DNA of 64,000 bases from Candidatus Omnitrophota bacterium (GTDB lineage Bacteria; Omnitrophota; Gorgyraeia; Gygaellales; Profunditerraquicolaceae). The notes under the pieces are model-generated. The model made no database searches, was not told where the DNA came from, and saw only the letters and a program-made list of their open reading frames with translations. Shown in pieces: positions 1,051-48,157 of this stretch; position 1 is the stretch's first letter, and each line of letters opens with the position of its first letter. The stretch is taken from assembly GCA_041650295.1 (NCBI GenBank), contig JBAZLM010000003.1, positions 66,933 through 130,932 on the forward strand. Reading direction: 5' to 3'. The translations under genes and the position numbers were made by a program.

Positions 1051-1350
1051 TTATTGACTAGGTCTACCCCGTTAGAGATAGGAAACGCTTCAGACGATTC
1101 TTTAAATAGCGTTTACCCATTCCTGTTTTTAAATATCTTTCTCTAGTAAAAGCATCGTCCTTATCTATACAAGCTTCGTAATATATTAATTCAAAAGGTC
1201 CTCTATTTTTAGTTGATACTACTTTGCCTTCATTATGTTCACTGAAGCGTTTCCGTAGATCAATAGTAGTGCCGGTGTAAAACTTGTTGTCCTTTTTACT
1301 CCTGATTACGTATGTGTATACCATAAGCCGTAATCTCTAACGGGGCTTAC
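1051..1350. mobile_element. Hairpin-repeat element carrying the GIY-YIG gene (IRs ccccgttagagat / atctctaacgggg)
   Basis: A perfect 13-bp inverted repeat flanks the GIY-YIG ORF. The same IR is found at 16692-16756 and 35555-35599 with only a short loop. Confidence 0.55.
1064..1324 (-). CDS. GIY-YIG nuclease family protein (UPF0213/YhbQ-like)
   Basis: 86 aa with the GIY-YIG core YVIRSKKDNKFYTGTTIDLRKRFSEHNEG. The gene lies exactly between the 13-bp inverted repeats at 1067-1079 and 1333-1345. Confidence 0.8.
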   Translation of the reverse strand: MVYTYVIRSKKDNKFYTGTTIDLRKRFSEHNEGKVVSTKNRGPFELIYYEACIDKDDAFTRERYLKTGMGKRYLKNRLKRFLSLTG

Positions 1351-15810: not shown

Positions 15811-16074
15811 ATGCCTAGACGTAGAACATCAATTAAAAGTACCCGCGTAAATAAAAGAAAACATACTCGTAATCTTAAGGTCAAAGTAGCACTTAAGAAA
15901 GCGATCAAGAATTTTCAAGAATTAATTACTAAAAAAGATGCTAGTGAAGCTAAAAAATGCTTAGTTAAGGTTTTTTCTCAGCTAGATAAAGCCGCCAAAA
16001 AAAATGTCATCGCTTTAGGAACCGCTAATCGCAAAAAATCGCGCCTCATGCTTCGTTTAAACAAAAGCGCATAA
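15811..16074 (+). CDS. rpsT: 30S ribosomal protein S20
   Basis: 87-aa basic protein (SIKSTRVNKRKHTRNLKVK ...). AAGGAG Shine-Dalgarno sequence lies 4 nt upstream. Confidence 0.9.
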   Translation: MPRRRTSIKSTRVNKRKHTRNLKVKVALKKAIKNFQELITKKDASEAKKCLVKVFSQLDKAAKKNVIALGTANRKKSRLMLRLNKSA

Positions 16075-16764
16075 ATTTACCACTAATTTTTCCAAAGCAA
16101 AGGCAGGCCTAAGCCTGCCTGTTTTTATCTCAATATCACAATTCAGCAAAAGTTTTAATTTTCTCTTTGCAATTTGACTTTGGATATCCTGTTTTTCCCA
16201 AGCAAAACGCAAACCGCCCAAAATCCTCTCCGGGGCTTGGCCATTTTTAAGCAGCTGGCTTAAGACCTCCAGAGCATAATCAGTTTTTCTCAATTCAATC
16301 TGGCGATTTAAAGCAAATGTATCCGGATTAGTTATCTCTTTAAAACGCATAAGCGATGCATATGAAGAGATCGCCTTAACAAATTCATCTTTATAATCAT
16401 ATTGCGGAAAATCTAAAACTAAAATTAATTGTTTAAATGGCTTTTTAGCATAAGCCAGCAGAAAATCCCGCGATGCATCATCTAGAGAATCTGCTTCTTT
16501 AATTACAACAATTCTTTTTTCACTTTTTAAGGGAATTGCCAGAAAACGTTCTTGGATATCTTTTAATTTTATTTCATTAGCATATAAGATATCCAGGTTA
16601 AAATCCTGCAGATCTTTAGAAAGGGCTTCCTGCTTTATTTTTCTAAGTTGAGTTTCTTTAGCCGCGATATCCTGGCCAATAAGTAAATAAACCCCGTTAG
16701 AAACAGGTTGTCGCAGACAACCACCGGATGTCTCATTTATCTTATTTCTAACGGGGTAAACCAT
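16057..16764 (-). CDS. holA: DNA polymerase III delta subunit (HolA), short
   Basis: VYLLIGQD...RKIKQEAL signature of the clamp-loader delta subunit. The ATG lies 1 nt after the lptE stop. Codons 3-24 are encoded by the hairpin repeat at 16692-16756. Confidence 0.7.
   Translation of the reverse strand: MVYPVRNKINETSGGCLRQPVSNGVYLLIGQDIAAKETQLRKIKQEALSKDLQDFNLDILYANEIKLKDIQERFLAIPLKSEKRIVVIKEADSLDDASRDFLLAYAKKPFKQLILVLDFPQYDYKDEFVKAISSYASLMRFKEITNPDTFALNRQIELRKTDYALEVLSQLLKNGQAPERILGGLRFAWEKQDIQSQIAKRKLKLLLNCDIEIKTGRLRPAFALEKLVVNLCAFV
16101..16126 (+). terminator. Rho-independent terminator for rpsT
   Basis: Stem aggcaggc, loop ctaa, stem gcctgcct, then gttttt. It lies inside the 3' coding end of the convergent holA ORF. 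Confidence 0.6.
16692..16756. repeat. Hairpin repeat copy 2 (ccccgttagaaa ... tttctaacgggg)
   Basis: 12-13-bp perfect inverted repeat with a 41-nt spacer. Same motif as the IRs flanking the GIY-YIG gene. Confidence 0.8.
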
Positions 16765-16765
16765 A

Positions 16766-17338
16766 TTACCATTGTTCAACGGTGCGTTCGACAATACGCC
16801 GAGCCAAATCCTCTACTGCATTAGTAACGGCTGTATCTTCAGAGACCAAAATCACATTACCAGAAGCAAAGCTGGTAAAATAAGAATAGTTACCATTAAA
16901 ATTACTCTCTTCCCAAACTAATTTATTCTCTGTAGTATCCCAAAGGCTAAGTTTTACATAAACATTAATACGATACTCCGTAACATTTTCACTATCGGCA
17001 GTATAACTCAAAGGATCCTTACGATATTCAATAAGTTCTCCCTTTAGCACTAAATCAGCTTGGCCATCTTTAGCCGGTTTTAGATTTCCATCAAAAAGAT
17101 ATTTATTAATTACTTTTTTAGTAATTTCAGTCTCAAGCATCGGTCGATAAATACGATATTTACTGGCAGAATAAGACTCTTGAGTTACATCTACTTTATT
17201 TAAGAAGGGAGTGACATAAATCGTTTTATATTTTCCATAAAGCATGGAGCGGGTAGTATAACCGCAACCACTTAAAACACTGGTTAAAATAAATAACCCG
17301 GTAGTAAAAATTACAAAAAATTTAACTTTATTTCTCAT
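16766..17338 (-). CDS. lptE: LPS-assembly lipoprotein LptE-like
   Basis: Lipobox LSGCG. Size and beta-rich composition match LptE/RlpB. Gene order is bamD-lptE-holA. Confidence 0.55.
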   Translation of the reverse strand: MRNKVKFFVIFTTGLFILTSVLSGCGYTTRSMLYGKYKTIYVTPFLNKVDVTQESYSASKYRIYRPMLETEITKKVINKYLFDGNLKPAKDGQADLVLKGELIEYRKDPLSYTADSENVTEYRINVYVKLSLWDTTENKLVWEESNFNGNYSYFTSFASGNVILVSEDTAVTNAVEDLARRIVERTVEQW

Positions 17339-20604: not shown

Positions 20605-20781
20605 GGCTTTTGCTGAAGGCACATTAGAAGATTTTCGGCAACTGTGTACAAGCCTGTCCTCCGCAGGAGGAGAATTACGTCGAGTGAAGGCGGTGTCCAT
20701 CTAGCGTAAGGAAGAAAGCCGTAGCCAGACGTAAGCCGCAGCAGGCGGCGAAAATCTTCGTGCCGAAGCGAAAGCCGGAAA
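20605..20781 (+). ncRNA. GC-rich structured non-coding element, copy A (unknown family)
   Basis: No ORF. GC content is higher than the flanking DNA. It is about 85% identical to the reverse complement of 47099-47270. A long-range complementary pair gattttcg / cgaaaatc is present. An extra hairpin, tcctccgcaggagga, occurs only in this copy. Confidence 0.45.
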
Positions 20782-25816: not shown

Positions 25817-28800
25817 TTAAAGACTTCCTGATCGGTTGATTTTTTATCTTGTTGAAGATTAGGTTTAGCCAACGGCTTTTCTGCGCCTAAAGGAATCACT
25901 CCCATCCCACCCGGAGGAATAATCCCGCTACCATGAGGAAACATCAAACGATTGGTAATTTCAGGGCTTTGATTTGAGATAAAATTTTGCTTTGAATACG
26001 AAAGATTGGAAACATCCGCAATGACTGGCATTGTCACAGGCAAAATCGCCGGGTTCACAAAGACTGGAGTGACCCCCATAGGAATAATTAATGGTGCGCT
26101 AACCGGAATGGGCATGGCCATTGGCACAGCAGGGACTACCCCAGTAGAAATAAACACAGGAACAGAGATATTTAAAGGTGTTGGTAAATTACTAACATAT
26201 AAGACACTTTCGCCTTGCATAATGGTTAAAGATTGATTAATCGCCAATGATCCGGGTTGATAGGTGATGGCATAATTACTCAAACCTGTTCCCTCTGCAG
26301 CGCTAGCAACGATACTATAAGGTGATTGATTAACCCCGGCACTGGCGGCAGCACCAGAGCTAGTTAAAGTTACGCTAGAGATTAGATCACTATTAATTAA
26401 TCCGCTGGAAGTAAACTCTGTTCCCGTAAAATTTAAATTATCGCCAAAAGTTTTAGTAACATTATCGGCGGTAATGGTTAAAGGTTTAGTAGTAATGGTT
26501 AGATTAGCTCCAACAAAATTAATTGAATAGTTGCTACCTGCAGATAAAGTGCCTTGATTAATCGCATAAGGACCAGCAGTAACAGTTTCGCCAGCGGCAC
26601 GCGCTAATGCGCCAGTAAATGAAATCGCTTCACTAGGTGTATAAGTAAATATCGGATCCACTGCACCGTAAACTTTGGTTTGAGCATCTGCAATCACGGT
26701 TACCGATTTAGGAGCAATAGTAAAATTAGCCGAAACAAAAGTAATGTCATAATTAGTACCAGCAGTTAAAGTTCCTTGATTAATGGCGTAACTACCGACG
26801 TCAGTACCAGCAGCGCGGCTTAAAGCACCAGAATAAGTATCTAAACCAACTAAGGTATCCGCAGTATAAGTAAAGACTGGATCAGCCGCTCCATAAACTT
26901 TAGATTGTCCGGCATTAGCCGTAACAGTTACCGGCTTAGCACTGATGGTTAAGTTGGCCGGAACAAAAGTAATTGTATAATTGCTGCCCGCAGTTAAGGT
27001 TCCCTGACCAATAGCATAATCGCCAACATTCGTGCCAACAGCGCGAGTTAATGCGCCAGTGTAAACGTCCTCACCCACTAAAGCAGTAGCGGTATAAGTT
27101 AAAGTTGGATCGCTAGCACCATAGACTTTGGTTTGAGCGTTAGCGGTAACGGTCACGGGTTTAGTATTAACAGTTAAAGACCCATTCTCATAAACAATAT
27201 TATAGTTGCTTAATCCTGTTCCCACTGCATCGCTAGGAACAATGCTATAGCTATTTACATTTGCACCTGAAGCTGCACCGACGCTAGTTAAAGTAACACT
27301 GTTTAAAGTATCCGAACCGACTAATCCTACTGCTGTAAATTCAGTTCCGGCAAAAGTTAAGGTTGAGCCATAAATCTTACTAGCGCTATTAGCCGTAATC
27401 GTCAAAGTTGGCTTAATCGCGCTGGTAATTACATTAAAAACGCCTGTGCCGATTGTAAAATATACATCATTTTCATGCGTTGCTCCCGAGCCGGTAATTC
27501 CCCAGGTTCCGTTAACTTGACCAATTTCGCCTAAAGTAAGCATATCAATACTAATCTCTGCCCCATCAGCAATATTAACTTGCGCTCCTGAAGCAATCGA
27601 TAAATTACCAACCACTATTGTGTCGCTGTATATATTAAATACGCAATTACCGGTTAAAATTAAATTAGCATTATAAGTGGCTGGAAATACATCTTGCTCA
27701 GTAACACCAATATATTCAACATCGCCATTAAATGTGCCACCAATAATTACGCCATTGTTAACAATCTCCCCATTAAATATGCCGCCAAGAATATACATAT
27801 TATTAACAACCTCTGCATTAAATGTACCATCAAGAATTGCTCCGTTATTAATAATTGCGGCATTAAATGTACCACTGGCAAGCGGAGCAATGCTATTAAT
27901 TGTGCCATTATATGTTCCAGCGGCGATACCGTAATAATTATCAATATGGGCGCTAAAAGTACCCTCACCAATTAAAGCGAAATTTCCAAACTCTACCGTA
28001 TAATCCGGAACCGTTTCTTGCACCACCCCATTAACGCTCCAGTTACTTGGAACAGTCGGACTGGCAAACCAACCGGTAAATACCGGAACCAAATGTTTGT
28101 CCGATCCAACCGGCACCGGAGTTCCTAAAACAATTTGATAAAAGTTCCCTCCGGTAACCGTACCATTATTTGTCACTACACCACTAAATCCACCACCATT
28201 AATTGTACCGTTATTCAAAACCGTACCCGTAAATCCTCCATCATTAATCGTACCATTATTAATTACTGGTCTGGCAACATTAAAAATACCATTTTCCATC
28301 GAATATGAACCCAATGTTTCGATCCCCATCCATTCATTACCTGCGCCTATAGTTAATGTCTTCGTATTGCTAGGAACTAAACCCAGGCCACCGACCGACC
28401 CACTGACCCAAATAAAATCTCCTACATATGCACCATCGCTAACTTCTCCACCGTCATTAATAAATGTGCCCTGAAATATTAATACTATGCCCTCATCATC
28501 AGAAATGCTAACTGAGCCATAATTAGTGACTGTACCATTAAATGTTCCACCTAAAATGGAACCATTATTAGTCAATGTGCCAGCATTAGATGTTCCCTCA
28601 GATGGATAATTTATCTTACCTGCATCAGGAATAGTTAGTGTATCATCACTAACTGGCACTCCATTTCCACCGGAATAATTACCAACATTATTTAAATTAC
28701 CATCCTCTGCACCAGTCCAAGTATAATTATAAGGACCGAGTCCATCATTCTGCACGAAATCGCCATTAATAACTCCGGCCGAAATAATTCCACCAACCTG

Positions 28801-31800
28801 ATTAGTTACCGTTCCAGTAAAAGTGCCACCATTAATCGTGCCATAGTTATCCAGATCCGTAGCGGTGGATCCGCTCATAATCGTTCCGATATTGGCAGCT
28901 TCTCCGGTAGAAGGTAGTACCTCAATTGTGGCTCCGTTTATCGTCCAGTTAGCAGCCACATCTAAATCTCCGCCGTTAAATACCGGAACAGCAGATTTAT
29001 CTATTCCACCGCCAATATCCCCATCAACACTCTGGTAAAAATTTCCGCCGGCAATAGCGCCAGTATTAGTAACCACGCCAAAAAACACACCATCCTCAAT
29101 GTCAGCTATATTAATAACCGGACCGTCAAAAATTCCTCCGGAAATTGTACCAGCATTAATCAGCTGATCGCTGTCATAAGTTTCACCACCAAGTTCATAG
29201 CTACCACCCATAACCTGATTATTAAATGTACCGCCGGATATCATTCCCACATTAGCAATCAAACCATTAAATTCTCCTGAATAAATATAACCAGCATTAT
29301 AAATTAGACCGCTAATCTCTCCTCCATCAATAATATTATAGTTGAAAAAATATTCACCTGAATATGACCCACCAGTAATTATGCCGGAATTAGCAACTTC
29401 TGCCTCATCTATAGGTAATGCTGATAATGGCTCACCATTCACTGACCAATTAGCGGCGACATCTAAATCTCCACCATTAAACACCGGGACATCAGATTTA
29501 TTTGTTCCATCTCCAATGCCATATCCTCCAACAGTCCGATAAAAATTACCACCAGCGATACTACTATTATTAGTAACTACGCCAAAAAATTGACCATCCT
29601 GAATATAATAATTATTGATAACTGTATTATTGAATACGCCATATTGGATATAATAATCATTAGTAACTGCGGCATTAAATACACCGCCGGCTATAAGATA
29701 AGTATTAACCACTGCGGAATTAAATACACCGCCACCAATTGCGATATTATTGGTAACTACGCCATTAAATGTACCGCCAAAAATTAACCCAGTATTAGTC
29801 AGCGCTTGGGCAAATGTACCACCCCAAATGCCCATAAGATTTGTAACTACACCACTAAATGTTCCATCGCCGATCAAGCCAGAGTTGTTAATTATGCCAC
29901 CATATACGCCATTCATAATGGAGCCGTAATTATCAATGCGTACAGAAGTTTGGCCAGCAATAATTACACCGAAATTAGCAAATTCTATTTCCGGCAATAC
30001 CTCTGTTGTATACGAATGACCGTCCATAGTCCAGGACCAGGTATCTGGATTATTTAAATCTCCCTCTTCGGCTGTAAATACCGGAACAGCTGACTTATTA
30101 ATACCGCTCTGGATCCCATTTGCACCAATAACCGTTTGATAAAAATCACCGCCGGTAATTGTACCGTCATTAGTAACTACGCCTAAGAAACCACCACCAG
30201 TAATCGTACCGCTAGGATTATTCAATACCGTATTACTAAACCCACCGCCAGTAATCGTACCATTGTTAGTAACTGGAGCAGAGATTGCGAATTTATTGTT
30301 ACCTAATCCGCTCAAAGAAAATACAGCTCCATCCCAAGTAGCGCCTGAGGCAATAGTTAAAGAAGTAATACCTGCAATATCAATAATAAATTGCGATCCG
30401 CCTTCCCAAATAAAATCTCCAGTAAATGTGGCGCCATAAATATGTCCACTATGAGCAGTAAATTTACCTTTAAAAAATATACCTACCTCTAAATCGTCAG
30501 AAATATTACCATTATTAACAACTTCACCATTAAATATCCCACCGAAAATATTACCGTTATTAGTAGTTAACAAAGCATTGGATGTTCCTGATGATGGATA
30601 ATTTGCTTCATCCCCAAGCCAAGGAATAGTTAATGTATCAGTATTAGTTGGTACCACTTCAGCCACTAATCCACCGCAAGTATAATTGCCTGGTTTACCC
30701 AAATCCCCATCAATTGCCCCCGTCCAAACATAATCTAAATCCCAATTAGAGTTGTTAGTTCCTTTTAACGATAAAGTCATTGGCATAAGATAATTAGCCA
30801 CATTATTACCATCCTGAACGTATATATAGGTAAGATTTACTTTTGTCTGATCAAGAGCATTAACCATCCATTGGCTGCCAGCTTCTGTGGAAGATACACG
30901 GATTAAGTTGCCAGATGCTCCCTCTATTCTTAAGTTGTTCAGAATAGTCTGGGTTTTACCGGCTTCAAATTTGATGATTTTTCCAGGAGTGGTGCAAACT
31001 AAATTATAGAAGGTATTATTACCGCTGATAATGGAAACCTTGCTGGCATCAATAAAGCTTACGGTATAAGTAGCCGCATCAAAGGTTCCGGTCTGGTGAT
31101 TAAAATTACCTCTTAAAGCCAAATCCCGGGCTAAAGTTAAAGTACTGGTATAACCATTTATATTTAAATCATCAATCGTCCCCTGGAAAGCCGCATCCAC
31201 AATAGAATCTTTATTCGGGTTATTTCCAGTGACACCATCAAAGGTAACGATGTCATATTCGGTAGGAGTAGTTCCGGTATCCCAGTTATTTGCATCTGAC
31301 CAGTTATTGGTTGCGCCATTACCAGTCCAGAAAGGATCTAAATCGAGGTTGGTATTATTGCCCAAAGAGCTAGAATGAATGATCTTTAACGGAGGAGCAC
31401 GGATATTTAATAAGTTGCTGACTAAAGCATATTGAATATCGCTCTCTCCTTGTGCATTCAGTGACCATTGTTTTAAAGGATCAATAGAAGTTAAAGTTAA
31501 AAGATTACCGTAGCTTCCTTTTAAGTTTAAGTTATTTAAAATGGCTTGAGGATTTTCAGTGTCAAATCTAACGATTTTACCCGGTTCAGTAACGTTAAAA
31601 TTATAAAAGATATTGGCTCCTAAAACATTGGCATCTTGACTAGAAACTAAATTTACCGTAGAGGTACCAGCATTAAATAAGCCAGAATTGGCCCAATTTC
31701 GGCTAATACTATACTCAGTATTAGCCGCATTCAAAGTCACGCCCTTACCTATATATAAGGATCCGGCAGTTCTGACTTGAGAATTATCCTGTTGATTATA

Positions 31801-35349: not shown

Positions 35350-35428
35350 TACGCTCGCTACGGCACTTGTCGTGCCGTTTTACGCTCGTTTTAGTGCCAT
35401 TTAATTTTTGCTTGTCGCAAAAATTAAA

Positions 35429-35501
35429 TGGAGCTGAGGAGGATCGAACTCCTGACCCTTTGCATGCCATGCAAATGCTCTCCCAGCTGAGCTACAGCCC
35501 C
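35429..35501 (-). tRNA. tRNA-Ala (GGC)
   Basis: Cloverleaf GGGGCTG / GCTCAGCTGGGAGAGC / anticodon loop ATGGCAT / GGGTCAGGAGTTCGATCCTCCT / CAGCTCC-A. The G3:U70 Ala identity pair is present. Confidence 0.8.
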
Positions 35502-35554
35502 AAAATTTATCTATTGACCTTTGCTATTTTAGAATATAAAATGCTTAACGTCAA

Positions 35555-35599
35555 CCCCGTTAGAAATACAAAATTATAATAGCATAATTTCTAACGGGG
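35555..35599. repeat. Hairpin repeat copy 3 (ccccgttagaaat ... atttctaacgggg)
   Basis: 13-bp perfect inverted repeat with a 19-nt loop, lying between the divergent tRNA-Ala and tRNA-Leu. Confidence 0.8.
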
Positions 35600-35616
35600 T
35601 CAACTTAAAAATCTAT

Positions 35617-35699
35617 GCCGGGATGGCGAAATGGCATACGCGGCAGCCTCAAAAGCTGCTGAGCGCAAGTTCATGTGGGTTCAACTCCCTCTCCCGGTA
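35617..35699 (+). tRNA. tRNA-Leu (CAA), type II with long variable arm
   Basis: Acceptor stem GCCGGGA/TCCCGGT. D-arm GCGAAATGGCATACGC. Anticodon stem-loop GCAGC-CTCAAAA-GCTGC. T-loop GGTTCAACTCC. One apparent mismatch remains in my T-stem parse. Confidence 0.55.
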
Positions 35700-35707
35700 T
35701 TTTTTTA

Positions 35708-38008: not shown

Positions 38009-39511
38009 CTACTTTCTTAATTGTTCTTTATCGATCTTACCCGTACGATTCTTAGGAAGGCTGGTACAAAATTCAAAATAATGCGGAATCTTAAAATTTG
38101 CTAAATTCTGTCTTAAAAAATAACGCAGATCTTCTTCGCTAAGCTGCTTTCCTTCTTTAATTACTAAAAATGCTTTGGGAACCTCTCCTCTTAATTTATC
38201 TGCCACCCCCACTACTGCGGCCTCAGCAATATCCGGATGTTTTTGCAAGCTAGCTTCAACTTCCGGCTCAAAGACAATCTCGCCACCCACCTTAATCATC
38301 TCTTTTTTTCTACCGACAATATAGAGATAGCCGTCCTGATCAAATTTACCTAAATCTCCGGTATGAAACCAACCACCCCGCAAGGTTTCTTTAGTTAATT
38401 TGGCATCTTTAAAATATCCGTCGGTAACCACCCAACTTTTTACCACAACCTCTCCTACCTCTCCGCAAGGTAACTCCTGGTCCGTGCCTGAAAATATTTT
38501 TACCTCTATCCAGGGAGCCGGTCGGCCCACGCTTTCAACGTTTTTTGAACCCATCGGTAAAACTACCGTCGGAGCATTGGTTTCGGTTAAGCCCCAACCA
38601 TTCAAAAGACTAGCCTTGGGACAAAACTGATGAAACCTGCGCAAAGCATCCGGAGAGTTAGATGCCCCAAAGGTAACAATCCAACGCAAACTAGATAAAT
38701 CAAAAGTTTCAAACTCTTTTAATTGTAAAAGCGCATAATACATCGAAGGCACAATCCAGAAAAAATTTATCTTATAATTCTGTACGTTCTTTAAAAATTC
38801 TAACGGGCTAAAACGCTCCATCAAGACAACTTTTAAACCAAAAGAGATCATATTCTGGATATAAATTAACCCTCCTAAATGCGAAAATGGTAAAGCACAA
38901 AGTGCAGTATCTTTGGCACTCAGATCAGAGTTCACAAAAAAAGCCATCGATTTAGGCGGAGCATCTAATTGCGCATAATTAATTAAAACTCCTTTGGGTT
39001 TACCCGTGGTACCAGAAGTATAAAAAATTATGGCATAATCTTTTTCATTAATTTTTACCTGCGGAGCCGAACTTGATCCTTCGGCCAAAAGTTTTTCATA
39101 ACTTAAACTCAAGCTATCCTCTGATTGACAGGAGATAATATTTTTTAATGAAGGTAGTCTGGCCTTAAGATTAGCAAATGAAATATTAGCTTTATGTTTA
39201 GTAATTAGTAACTTAGTTTCAGAATGATCTAGGCAGGAAACAATCTCTTCTTCGGTAAGCATAAAATCTAAAGGCACACTACAAGCCCCCACTGACCAGA
39301 TCGCTAAATAACTAATCACATACTCCGGCCAATTAGGCAAATAGATCGCTACTTTATCCTGCGGCTTAACTCCCAACTTAATTAAACTTTGCGCAAATGA
39401 AAATACTTTATCTTTTAATTGAGAAAAAGAGATCTCATCCTGACGAAAAATAATCGCCGGTTTATTGGCATACTCTTTGGCACAATTTTCTAAAACATTA
39501 ATTACTTTCAC
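38009..39511 (-). CDS. AMP-dependent synthetase / long-chain fatty-acid-CoA ligase family
   Basis: AMP-binding motif YTSGTTGKPKGV and the acyl-CoA synthetase C-terminal domain. GTG start. Confidence 0.8.
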   Translation of the reverse strand: MKVINVLENCAKEYANKPAIIFRQDEISFSQLKDKVFSFAQSLIKLGVKPQDKVAIYLPNWPEYVISYLAIWSVGACSVPLDFMLTEEEIVSCLDHSETKLLITKHKANISFANLKARLPSLKNIISCQSEDSLSLSYEKLLAEGSSSAPQVKINEKDYAIIFYTSGTTGKPKGVLINYAQLDAPPKSMAFFVNSDLSAKDTALCALPFSHLGGLIYIQNMISFGLKVVLMERFSPLEFLKNVQNYKINFFWIVPSMYYALLQLKEFETFDLSSLRWIVTFGASNSPDALRRFHQFCPKASLLNGWGLTETNAPTVVLPMGSKNVESVGRPAPWIEVKIFSGTDQELPCGEVGEVVVKSWVVTDGYFKDAKLTKETLRGGWFHTGDLGKFDQDGYLYIVGRKKEMIKVGGEIVFEPEVEASLQKHPDIAEAAVVGVADKLRGEVPKAFLVIKEGKQLSEEDLRYFLRQNLANFKIPHYFEFCTSLPKNRTGKIDKEQLRK

Positions 39512-39590
39512 CCCGCACCTTCTTCCCTATTTAATTTCTACCCCATCACTTCTTATTCTATCAATACAAAGAAGGTGTGGGGTTCATTTA
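39512..39590 (-). promoter_or_regulatory. Conserved hairpin leader (copy 1) pairing the Shine-Dalgarno sequence of the downstream GTG-start gene
   Basis: On the mRNA strand, ccccacaccttctt ... gggaagaaggtgcggg|GTG. Stem of 12-14 bp. A paralogous element lies at 48085-48157. Confidence 0.5.
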
Positions 39591-47098: not shown

Positions 47099-47270
47099 CC
47101 GTCTTTTACTTCCGGCGCTCAAAGATTTTCGCCGTGTGCTGCGGCTTACGTCTCGTTACGGCTTTCTTCCTTACGCTAGATGGACACCGCCTTCACTCGA
47201 CGTAATTCCTTGCACACTATCAAAAAATTAGAAAGCCGAAAACTTTGAACGCGCCTCCAGCAAAAGCCGG
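47099..47270 (-). ncRNA. GC-rich structured non-coding element, copy B (5' leader of the 46638-47075 operon)
   Basis: The reverse complement is about 85% identical to 20605-20781. No ORF. It lies between two minus-strand genes, immediately upstream of the Shine-Dalgarno sequence of the SRPBCC gene. Confidence 0.45.
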
Positions 47271-47283
47271 AAATTTATAATAT

Positions 47284-48084
47284 TTAGTCTAAAAGAGCAA
47301 CCACTCTCGCCCAAGCTGCGCCAGTATTCTTTATGCGAATCGGAAAACAACTCACTTTAAATCCAAAATCCGGCAATTTCTCTAAATTAGCTAAACGCTC
47401 AATATGAATAAATTCTTTTTTACGACCGTAAAAATGCGCCGGATAAAACTTAGAGGCATCTTTTGTCTCTAAAAATTCTTTAAGCATAAAGCGATACGGT
47501 CGGTCAATGCCCATCGTATCTACACCAAAGATCTTTATACCTTTATTTAAAAGATACTCAATTGCGGACGGATCAACTCCCGGGTAATCGGAAAAATATT
47601 TAGGGCCCCCATAAAGCTTATCAGCACCAGTATGTAAAAATACAATATCCAAAGGCTTAAGTTGATAATTAATCTTCTTTAAAGCCTCCTCGATATCTGA
47701 GGACTTAATCACTTCATTGGGTTTCTTATGACGAAAATCTAACTTTACACCATTTTGATAACAATATTCTAAGGGAATCTCGTCGGCGGTTTTAGCCGCG
47801 CGGCCCTCTGATTGAGAACCATAATGAAAGGAATAATCTAAATGCGTGCCAATATGCACCGGCGCATGCACAATCTCTAACGACAGAAATTCCTCATCAG
47901 GCAAATCAGTTGGCTTAATAATGCGCTGACCCAGTAAATGCTTAACCTTGCCTAATAAAGTTTTACCCATAATCACGCGGTTAAATTTCTTAACCCCAGC
48001 TTTATGGGTAATTCTTTCGATATCTACTTTGTGTACTTCAAAAGCCTTTTCATCAATCGGCAGGCTTAAGTCAATTATTCTCAC
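47284..48084 (-). CDS. Cyclase family protein (PF04199; kynurenine-formamidase-like)
   Basis: HAPVHIGTHLDYSFHY metal-binding motif. GTG start preceded by the conserved hairpin leader. Confidence 0.7.
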   Translation of the reverse strand: MRIIDLSLPIDEKAFEVHKVDIERITHKAGVKKFNRVIMGKTLLGKVKHLLGQRIIKPTDLPDEEFLSLEIVHAPVHIGTHLDYSFHYGSQSEGRAAKTADEIPLEYCYQNGVKLDFRHKKPNEVIKSSDIEEALKKINYQLKPLDIVFLHTGADKLYGGPKYFSDYPGVDPSAIEYLLNKGIKIFGVDTMGIDRPYRFMLKEFLETKDASKFYPAHFYGRKKEFIHIERLANLEKLPDFGFKVSCFPIRIKNTGAAWARVVALLD

Positions 48085-48157
48085 CCCGCACCTTCTTTCC
48101 TATTTATCTTTACTCCCCCACTTTCTAATATTAAATTTTTAGAAGGTGCGGGACTCA
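48085..48157 (-). promoter_or_regulatory. Conserved hairpin leader (copy 2) pairing the Shine-Dalgarno sequence of the downstream GTG-start gene
   Basis: On the mRNA strand, cccgcaccttct ... ggaaagaaggtgcgggGTGAGA. It shares stem and loop blocks with 39512-39590. Confidence 0.5.

Follow-up and report, generated by a model that had tools for sequence, protein, structure and literature searches.

In Rickettsia, short palindromic repeats occur in frame in protein-coding genes, essential ones included, where the added peptide is tolerated, and they are dispersed across a genome lineage. The Correia elements (NEMIS) of Neisseria are small, non-coding, multicopy transposable elements of the miniature inverted-repeat kind (MITEs) with terminal inverted repeats and target duplications. 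They insert within genes or next to them, where they can provide a stop codon or change the end of the gene, and their RNA folds into stable hairpins. In the REP/RAYT (TnpA-REP) partnership, a small nuclease gene lies between inverted copies of a scattered short palindromic repeat, and this gene, present as a single copy, seems to evolve together with the many short repeats. Here we describe a family of palindromic elements that resembles the three systems in these respects. It was recognized in a stretch of 64,000 nucleotides (hereafter, the window) from Candidatus Omnitrophota bacterium (assembly GCA_041650295.1, contig JBAZLM010000003.1, positions 66,933 to 130,932), in which one 65-nt copy lies within the first codons of holA, the gene of the delta subunit of DNA polymerase III. 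Our reading, to which we assign a probability of about 0.88, is that this copy is a non-autonomous, MITE-like palindromic transposable element that inserted at a TTTA of holA with duplication of these 4 bp and is translated as a tolerated tail of 23 residues.

On the minus strand, the stop codon of lptE (TAA, 16768-16766) is followed by a single spacer base (16765) and by the ATG of holA (16764-16762), as the initial annotation had placed it. From 16756 to 16692 the hairpin reads CCCCGTTAGAAAT-AAGATAAATGAGACATCCGGT-GGTTGTCTGCGACAACC-TG-TTTCTAACGGGG, and in the holA frame the sequence runs ATG GTT TA/C CCC GTT AGA AAT...TCT AAC GGG G/TT TAT TTA CTT ATT GGC CAG GAT, with the element between the slashes. 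It thus supplies the third base of codon 3 (TAC), all of codons 4-24 and the first base of codon 25 (GTT), so that the N-terminal peptide encoded through it is YPVRNKINETSGGCLRQPVSNG, followed by VYLLIGQD. The net insertion is 65 + 4 = 69 nt, that is, 23 codons. The same annotation had described codons 3-24 as filled by the hairpin, with VYLLIGQD directly after it, and this agrees both with the coordinates and with the start of the Pfam domain: in the match to DNA_pol3_delta (PF06144, E 4.4e-9, residues 26-141), residue 26 corresponds to model position 1 and stands directly after the hairpin-encoded residues. The C-terminal domain of HolA was also recognized (PF21694, E 4.8e-6), and therefore both the N- and C-terminal domains of the delta subunit are present. 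The order lptE-holA-rpsT-murJ is conserved, and the HolA protein is 100% identical to P0001, a protein of an Omnitrophota metagenome-assembled genome (MAG). The direct TTTA repeat flanking the element (Table 1) is a detail that the annotation had not given.

For the element region a folding energy of about −30 kcal/mol was computed, with z scores of −4.3 for the strand of holA and −6.2 for the opposite one. The window contains seven matches to the 12-nt arm pattern, three inverted pairs plus a lone match, where 0.3 would be expected, and none of 100 shuffles of the window reached seven matches. In L001, which also carries the insert, the inner hairpin is GGCTGCC-TGC-GGCAGCC; with respect to the window, its changes compensate each other in the stem and are synonymous at the protein level.

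Table 1. Position of the holA element, of its neighbors and of its relatives in the 64,000-nt window.
Feature	Position	Strand	Remarks
Palindromic element, 65 nt	16692..16756		13-bp terminal inverted repeats CCCCGTTAGAAAT / (A/G)TTTCTAACGGGG, variable interior
Target-site duplication, copy at holA-start side	16757..16760		TTTA in holA sense, TAAA on plus strand
Target-site duplication, second copy	16688..16691		TTTA in holA sense
Inner hairpin GGTTGTC-TGC-GACAACC	16706..16722		Encodes GCLRQ
holA (DNA polymerase III delta subunit), 235 aa including 23-aa insert	16057..16764 (stop codon included)	-	
lptE	16766..17338	-	Pfam LptE PF04390, E 1.3e-11
Second short copy, 45 nt	35555..35599		TCAA duplication at 35551-35554 and 35600-35603; folding z about −7
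279-bp unit, arms CCCCGTTAGAGAT	1067..1345	-	Encloses gene of an 86-aa predicted GIY-YIG nuclease (ORF 1064-1324)

The insertion itself was established by comparison of filled and empty sites. Among the best 120 HolA homologs (65-83% identity), 92 have no insert and begin at MVYLLIGQD, or are called upstream into the lptE overlap, while the remaining 28 have extra residues exactly between MVY and VYLL; the absence of the segment from most orthologs is what the initial annotation had predicted. At the DNA level, eleven related genomes (L002-L009, L011, L012 and others) carry the empty site ...CAATGGTAATATGGTTTA/TYTACTTATCGGCCAGGAT. Its form is ATGGTTTA/TYTACTT (also ...TGGTAATATGGTTTA/TYTACTT across L002-L012), and L007 reads ATGGTTTA/TCTACTT. 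The filled site is ATGGTTTA(65 nt)TTTATTTACTT, and both the window and L001 read ...ATGGTTTA(CCCC...GGGG)TTTATYTACTT. The lptE-holA junction TGGTAATATGG is conserved in L001-L012. The filled L001 and the empty L007 share 96.2% identity in the HolA core and 88.9% in holA DNA, with no gaps, and they differ at holA by exactly 65 nt plus TTTA, that is, 69 nt, which is the classical filled-site and empty-site proof of insertion. A conserved regulatory hairpin of holA was also considered and was rejected, given that most orthologs do not have the element.

The holA element belongs to a family that is abundant in Omnitrophota, with three copies in the window and at least 120 metagenome loci, which were found by a scan with a fixed 12-nt arm pair (family pattern CCCCGTTAGARAT) and an interior of 15-45 nt. 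The family counts given below (133, 148 and about 152 copies, and 103 sites) are those among the matches listed. A perfect 4-bp direct repeat flanked 93 of 133 copies (70%), and the logo of 103 distinct sites was T-W-W-A, with T and A each at 88% and the outer positions always Y..R; 47% of these sites had G at −1 and C at +1. The TWWA target is a palindromic preference. The perfect stem showed a sharp peak at 13 bp (98 of 148 distinct copies), with position 11 (A or G) and position 13 (any base) covarying between the arms and position 14 unrelated. Element lengths ranged from 30 to 198 nt, most of them 40-70 nt, and the interiors varied widely, with recognizable subfamilies. The holA-type subfamily (65 nt, two inner hairpins) was also found in rtcB (L065) and at two further uncharacterized sites (L116, L139), so that the holA inserts owe their likeness to the family. 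In nested and tandem arrangements the 4-bp repeat is shared between copies (L048, L056, L092, L094, L100, L147).

Judged by its size, inverted repeats, target duplication with empty sites and dispersed copies, the element is built like a MITE. The family had been called mobile by the initial annotation, and the 4-bp duplications, the empty sites and the occurrence of two repeat families at one holA site (see below) bear this out. Two other classes were discarded: the arms contain GTTAGA / TCTAAC, as integron attC sites do, but the remaining attC architecture is missing, and the single-strand elements of the IS200/IS605 type make no target duplication. In the whole window, Rfam at the gathering threshold gave only two tRNAs, and at a permissive threshold the hairpin gave only chance, microRNA-like matches. 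These tRNA genes, tRNA-Ala(GGC) (35428-35502, minus strand) and tRNA-Leu(CAA) (35616-35700, plus strand), are divergent, and the 45-nt copy occupies their 113-nt spacer.

An association with tRNA genes of another kind was observed in a metagenome contig (L133, 2993-3135), where a 143-nt element with the same arms has a complete tRNA-Met(CAT) gene as its cargo. The element interrupts the anticodon loop of another tRNA-Met gene, with CTCA duplicated at the site, so that one gene was disrupted and a replacement delivered.

Many copies are found inside genes. Counting holA in the window and in L001, 21 of about 152 non-redundant copies (13%) lie within long open reading frames (ORFs), and the length of the element plus 4 was a multiple of three in 20 of these 21, as against 66 of 131 elsewhere (Fisher p = 6.7e-5). 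Two of the three frames of the arms are open and read x-P-V-R-N/D...I/L-S-N-G-V or x-P-L-E...F/S-L-T-G, while the third is closed by TAG and TAA. Host genes confirmed by Pfam were those of an FdhA-like molybdopterin oxidoreductase (two inserts), RtcB (with the 65-nt subfamily), a Pif1-like helicase, CinA and PrmC; inserts were also present in ComEC-like and glycosyltransferase-like ORFs, assigned by eye from their translations, and a GIY-YIG homolog (P0210) itself bears an in-frame copy. The likeness to the Rickettsia palindromic elements that had been proposed is thus confirmed as a matter of behavior, the frame being kept in 20 of the 21 copies inside genes.

With respect to holA, the sequence of events may be envisaged as follows. 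The element inserted at TTTA across codons 2-3 (ATG GTT TAT ...), with duplication of 4 bp; the conserved start of holA, GGTTTAT, fits the T-W-W-A target with its preferred G before and C after, and has been hit repeatedly. As 69 nt is divisible by three and the frame (..Y PVRNK..SNG V..) is free of stops, the start codon of holA is kept, and it is to these two properties that the gene owes its survival. The added residues would form a disordered tail ahead of strand beta-1, leaving the essential delta subunit able to work. The arrangement of lptE stop, 1 nt and ATG suggests translational coupling, by which ribosomes would probably reach the holA start regardless of the hairpin, and coupled ribosomes could help to melt its approximately −30 kcal/mol structure.

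The peptide in question is VYPVRNKINETSGGCLRQPVSNG, with the N-terminal form (M)VYPVRNKINETSGGCLRQPVSNGVYLL. From the hairpin to strand beta-1 (VYLL) there is no in-frame ATG, GTG or TTG, and therefore the insert has to be translated; moreover, the M of insert-free orthologs immediately precedes VYLL, which leaves no room for a start further inside the gene. A true start downstream of the hairpin, which the initial annotation had named as the outcome that would contradict it, thus finds no candidate codon in the sequence, and we infer that the insert is translated as 23 extra residues. The AlphaFold model (72 aligned sequences, mean predicted local distance difference test score, pLDDT, 78.8) gave residues 1-22 a pLDDT of about 30, with a confident fold beginning at the strand of residues 25-29, and this model points to a disordered N-terminal tail.

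It might be argued instead that the hairpin is not translated, either because the real start is downstream or because ribosomes bypass the element, and that it acts as a 5′ leader or attenuator. The great stability of the hairpin (−30 kcal/mol), which starts 8 nt past the ATG, would agree with this, as would the GTG within the element at which the gene caller starts HolA in one further locus (L174). However, the lack of in-frame starts in the window stands against it, as does the position of M in insert-free orthologs, whose N-terminus cannot be trimmed. In addition, all holA inserts seen as protein consist of whole codons and are stop-free, and this, with frame preservation in 20 of 21 copies family-wide, would not be expected of a sequence that is skipped or untranslated. 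We consider an untranslated hairpin very improbable. In the locus with the GTG start, the 65-nt holA-type element (L174, 249-313) stands directly before VYLL, the DNA upstream is unrelated, and neither lptE nor an ATG is present; either the repeat was the site of a rearrangement or the assembly is chimeric here.

The holA start is an insertion hotspot. In L173 a different element, with arms (C/T)CCCCGCRCCAATTG, occupies the same TTTA; its 53 + 4 = 57 nt translate as MVYPRANCNLSQVERSIGAG-IYLF, and this type was found in 6 of the 120 HolA orthologs. Two unrelated inverted-repeat families at one site prove at least two gains. Moreover, on a neighbor-joining tree of the 212-aa HolA cores, the insert state requires at least 25 changes as compared with a mean of 26.3 for shuffled states, that is, it has no phylogenetic signal, and several insert-bearing HolA proteins have their nearest insert-free neighbor at 92-96% identity and their nearest insert-bearing neighbor at 83-90%. 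Numerous gains, numerous precise losses or a mixture of the two are likely. The lptE-holA junction attracts CCCC...GGGG elements even outside the coding sequence: in two more distant Omnitrophota (L015, L017) the lptE-holA spacer contains other such hairpins, with arms CCCCCGCACCAATTG and CCCCAGCATCAATTC and TAAA or TAAG flanks.

A single ancient insertion in the ancestor of the clade, followed by many precise excisions, would account for the finding of every insert at exactly one position without holA being a recurrent target, and a palindrome set between direct repeats of 4 bp is classically prone to precise deletion through replication slippage. The window and another locus (L295, protein P0002) also appear to share one old, decaying copy. 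In the latter the inner hairpin is of the same T/A variant, the right arm and the duplication are decayed, and the holA core shares only about 76% DNA identity with that of the window, where the first of the two inner hairpins is decayed with respect to the subfamily consensus. From these sequences, the copy in the window is probably an old, tolerated insertion that looks shared with L295. Against one ancestral event, however, two unrelated families are present at the site (L173 vs. the window and L001), the copy in L001 still has undamaged arms and its two inner hairpins, with an empty site in the closest relative (96% protein identity), and the 65-nt subfamily occurs at other loci, so that the similarity of the inserts is not evidence for common descent. 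We regard this alternative as improbable, although less so than an untranslated hairpin. The description of the family as recent in the initial annotation therefore holds in part: it was recently active at holA in other lineages, where filled and empty cores are 95-96% identical, but the copy in the window is probably old.

It must be noted that several points weigh against the interpretation of the holA copy as a translated, MITE-like insertion. The interiors are far more variable than those of typical MITE families, only the 13-bp arms being shared. About 1 Mb of loci (window, Omnitrophota and metagenome) yielded neither a DDE transposase nor any other with these inverted repeats, so that the name of MITE refers to the anatomy of the element. 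The translation of the 23 residues is read from the sequence; a stable hairpin 8 nt past a start codon would normally depress initiation, and coupling to lptE is our inferred answer. Finally, the scattered presence and absence could partly reflect precise loss rather than repeated gain, and the tree of a 212-aa protein is weakly resolved.

The same arms that flank the empty hairpins, a label of the initial annotation that proved a fair one, elsewhere enclose a gene. The 279-bp unit of the window (Table 1) encodes a protein of the GIY-YIG superfamily (UPF0213 / YhbQ-like), a predicted nuclease (PF01541, E 3.5e-18; closest solved relative 1ZG2_A, a UPF0213 protein, E 6.8e-7). It is the sole coding member with these arms in the loci examined. 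Exact-sequence look-ups found neither this protein (P0121) nor P0123 on record. The GIY-YIG unit is always fused to the 3′ end of a gene. In the window, the lipid A acyltransferase gene (1337-2248) takes its stop (CCC CGT TAG) from the upstream arm of the unit (1334-1345), and the other arm encodes the C-terminus of the nuclease, LSLTG. The same CCC CGT TAG ends holA and pgk (L008, 6675; L152, 1980; L159, 2481), and in a variant family CCG TGA from the upstream arm ends ftsY (L297, 1483). Between pgk and tpiA the unit measures exactly 279 bp in L151-158 and L170-172, and 278 bp at the same site in L159; units of 279 bp are also found beside an ORF6N gene (L160-168) and at a separate site (L169), and a further one lies at the 3′ end of holA on an L008 contig that stops within it.

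The arms are written into the protein. Among 120 close GIY-YIG homologs, 78 end exactly in ...KRFLSLTG and several begin with (N/S)PVRD from the upstream arm, and among representatives of clusters at 50% identity many end in ...YLTG and many start with ...PVR. A soil relative with 55% protein identity (L296-301) again measures exactly 279 bp, with arms CCCCGTGAGATA / TATCTCACGGGG that carry a compensating change on both sides, and a 30-nt short hairpin with these same arms was found in L108. The unit of L169 has a perfect TAAA duplication, although matching 4-bp flanks were found at only one of six distinct, fully flanked full-unit sites. In L152, an internally deleted unit of 146 nt with a perfect TAAA duplication adjoins a full one, and short copies can thus derive from the 279-bp unit. 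In viral contigs, a protein-based scan with the GIY-YIG sequence gave no match, and a 14-mer arm scan gave single matches only, with no paired arm, which we read as chance.

As to what moves these elements, where the arms of a pair lie further apart they enclose nothing but housekeeping genes (L143, L108, L037), and an all-against-all clustering of 904 ORFs from 120 hairpin-bearing metagenome loci revealed no recurrent transposase-like family. One explanation is that the short elements are moved in trans by an unlinked DDE transposase, the GIY-YIG gene being a passenger or a homing-type parasite of the element. A palindromic 4-bp target consensus and an inverted repeat of 13 bp are usually the mark of a dimeric cut-and-paste transposase, the missing phylogenetic signal would fit seamless excision, and the L133 copy with its tRNA cargo indicates that passengers are possible. 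It must be considered, on the other hand, that no such enzyme lies within any arm pair or recurs across the 120 loci, and that a passenger role leaves the exact 279-bp architecture and the covarying arms, maintained down to 55% protein identity, unexplained. We place this explanation at somewhat less than even odds.

Alternatively, the 279-bp unit might be autonomous, its 86-aa nuclease recognizing the 13-bp arms (as duplex ends, hairpin or cruciform) and mobilizing both itself and the short copies, that of holA included. Its exact length in the window, L151-158, L160, L169, L170-172 and the soil relative with its compensating arms would speak for this, as would the arm-encoded ...LSLTG of 78 of 120 close homologs, the ...YLTG and N-terminal PVR of many distant ones, and the differing places in which the unit occurs (the 3′ ends of the acyltransferase gene and of holA in L008, pgk/tpiA, ORF6N and L169). 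The TAAA duplications of the L152 deletion derivative and of the L169 full unit point the same way, and no other candidate enzyme recurs near the elements in the loci examined. Nevertheless, GIY-YIG nucleases only hydrolyze DNA, and to our knowledge none acts as a transposase or has a strand-transfer chemistry; those that are well characterized leave staggers of 2 nt, not 4 nt. Furthermore, duplications match at one of six full-unit sites vs. 70% of short copies, the pgk-tpiA unit is stably inherited across genomes, most short copies have GAAAT arms while the units have GAGAT arms, and GIY-YIG genes are rare in the loci selected by the hairpin. A self-mobilizing unit whose nuclease also moves the short copies is therefore doubtful, clearly more so than an unlinked DDE-type enzyme, and the rest of the probability goes to something else.

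Other repeats were observed in the window. A further hairpin family is present at 39511-39582 and 48084-48153, with arms CCCCGCACCTTCT / AGAAGGTG(T/C)GGG(G/A) and flanking repeats TTCA (39507-39510 and 39583-39586) and CTCA (48080-48083 and 48154-48157). As its CCCCG... ends and Y..R duplication match those of the holA element, at least two repeat families of a common superfamily are present in the window. A 92-nt intergenic sequence, rich in G+C with respect to its surroundings, occurs twice, 26 kb apart and with 93% identity (20672-20763, plus strand; 47117-47208, minus strand); it matched no Rfam family and may correspond to a small RNA, to a leader or to a further repeat. In addition, a dense and degenerate array with a 45-nt period (15 residues) extends over about 4 kb (approximately 26300-30600) and probably encodes a very large, repetitive protein of the surface or adhesin-like type.

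A gene essential to replication can bear a translated transposon scar at its extreme N-terminus, and a single 4-bp holA site has been colonized repeatedly within one bacterial phylum. The family provides a second, independent and much larger case, after Rickettsia, of palindromic elements adding peptide segments, with the frame preservation of 20 of 21 genic copies as a clean statistical signature. The annotation of Omnitrophota MAGs is affected through odd N-termini and through stop codons supplied to neighboring genes, and assembly breaks at the repeats may follow. The link to the conserved 279-bp unit raises the testable question of whether a minimal GIY-YIG nuclease drives the transposition of hairpin elements. 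If the unit did mobilize itself, it would represent a new class of prokaryotic transposon, GIY-YIG-driven and among the smallest autonomous mobile elements, and would parallel the REP/RAYT partnership with the addition of target-site duplication and frequent in-frame colonization of genes.

With respect to the known systems, in-frame insertion in protein-coding genes is shared with the Rickettsia palindromic elements, being found here in holA and 20 other copies, 19 of which keep the frame. The two differ in that the sequences are apparently unrelated, the host phylum is another and the present elements are shorter (30-200 bp, mostly 40-70), with a defined 13-bp repeat, a 4-bp TWWA duplication, variable interiors and a GIY-YIG version. 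In Correia elements the repeats measure 26 bp, the duplication is TA and the interior is conserved, whereas here the repeat is of 13 bp, the duplication is a 4-bp TWWA, only the arms are conserved and a parent transposase insertion sequence was not found in the loci examined; given the differences in repeat length and duplication, the family cannot be placed among them. RAYTs are HUH/Y1 enzymes, while the gene flanked here is of the GIY-YIG type (UPF0213-like), and REPs are extragenic and without target duplication, while the present elements duplicate their target (4-bp repeats in 70% of copies) and lie inside genes in 13% of cases, which separates them from that partnership as well. Elements of the piggyBac/IS1380 type make a 4-bp, A/T-rich and near-palindromic duplication (TTAA) and can be lost seamlessly, which may apply here too, and the piggyBac repeat, CCCTAGAAAGATA, begins with a run of C, as does CCCCGTTAGAAAT here. 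The present target is relaxed to TWWA / YNNR, and no DDE transposase is found in any arm pair of the window, Omnitrophota and metagenome loci examined. In the literature we found no description of the family, nor of bacterial GIY-YIG genes within inverted repeats and target duplications, which is not proof of novelty. The elements constitute a family similar to MITEs and to the Rickettsia palindromic elements, with three unusual traits: conservation restricted to the arms with symmetric covariation, many in-frame copies inside genes and a coding relative of the GIY-YIG type.

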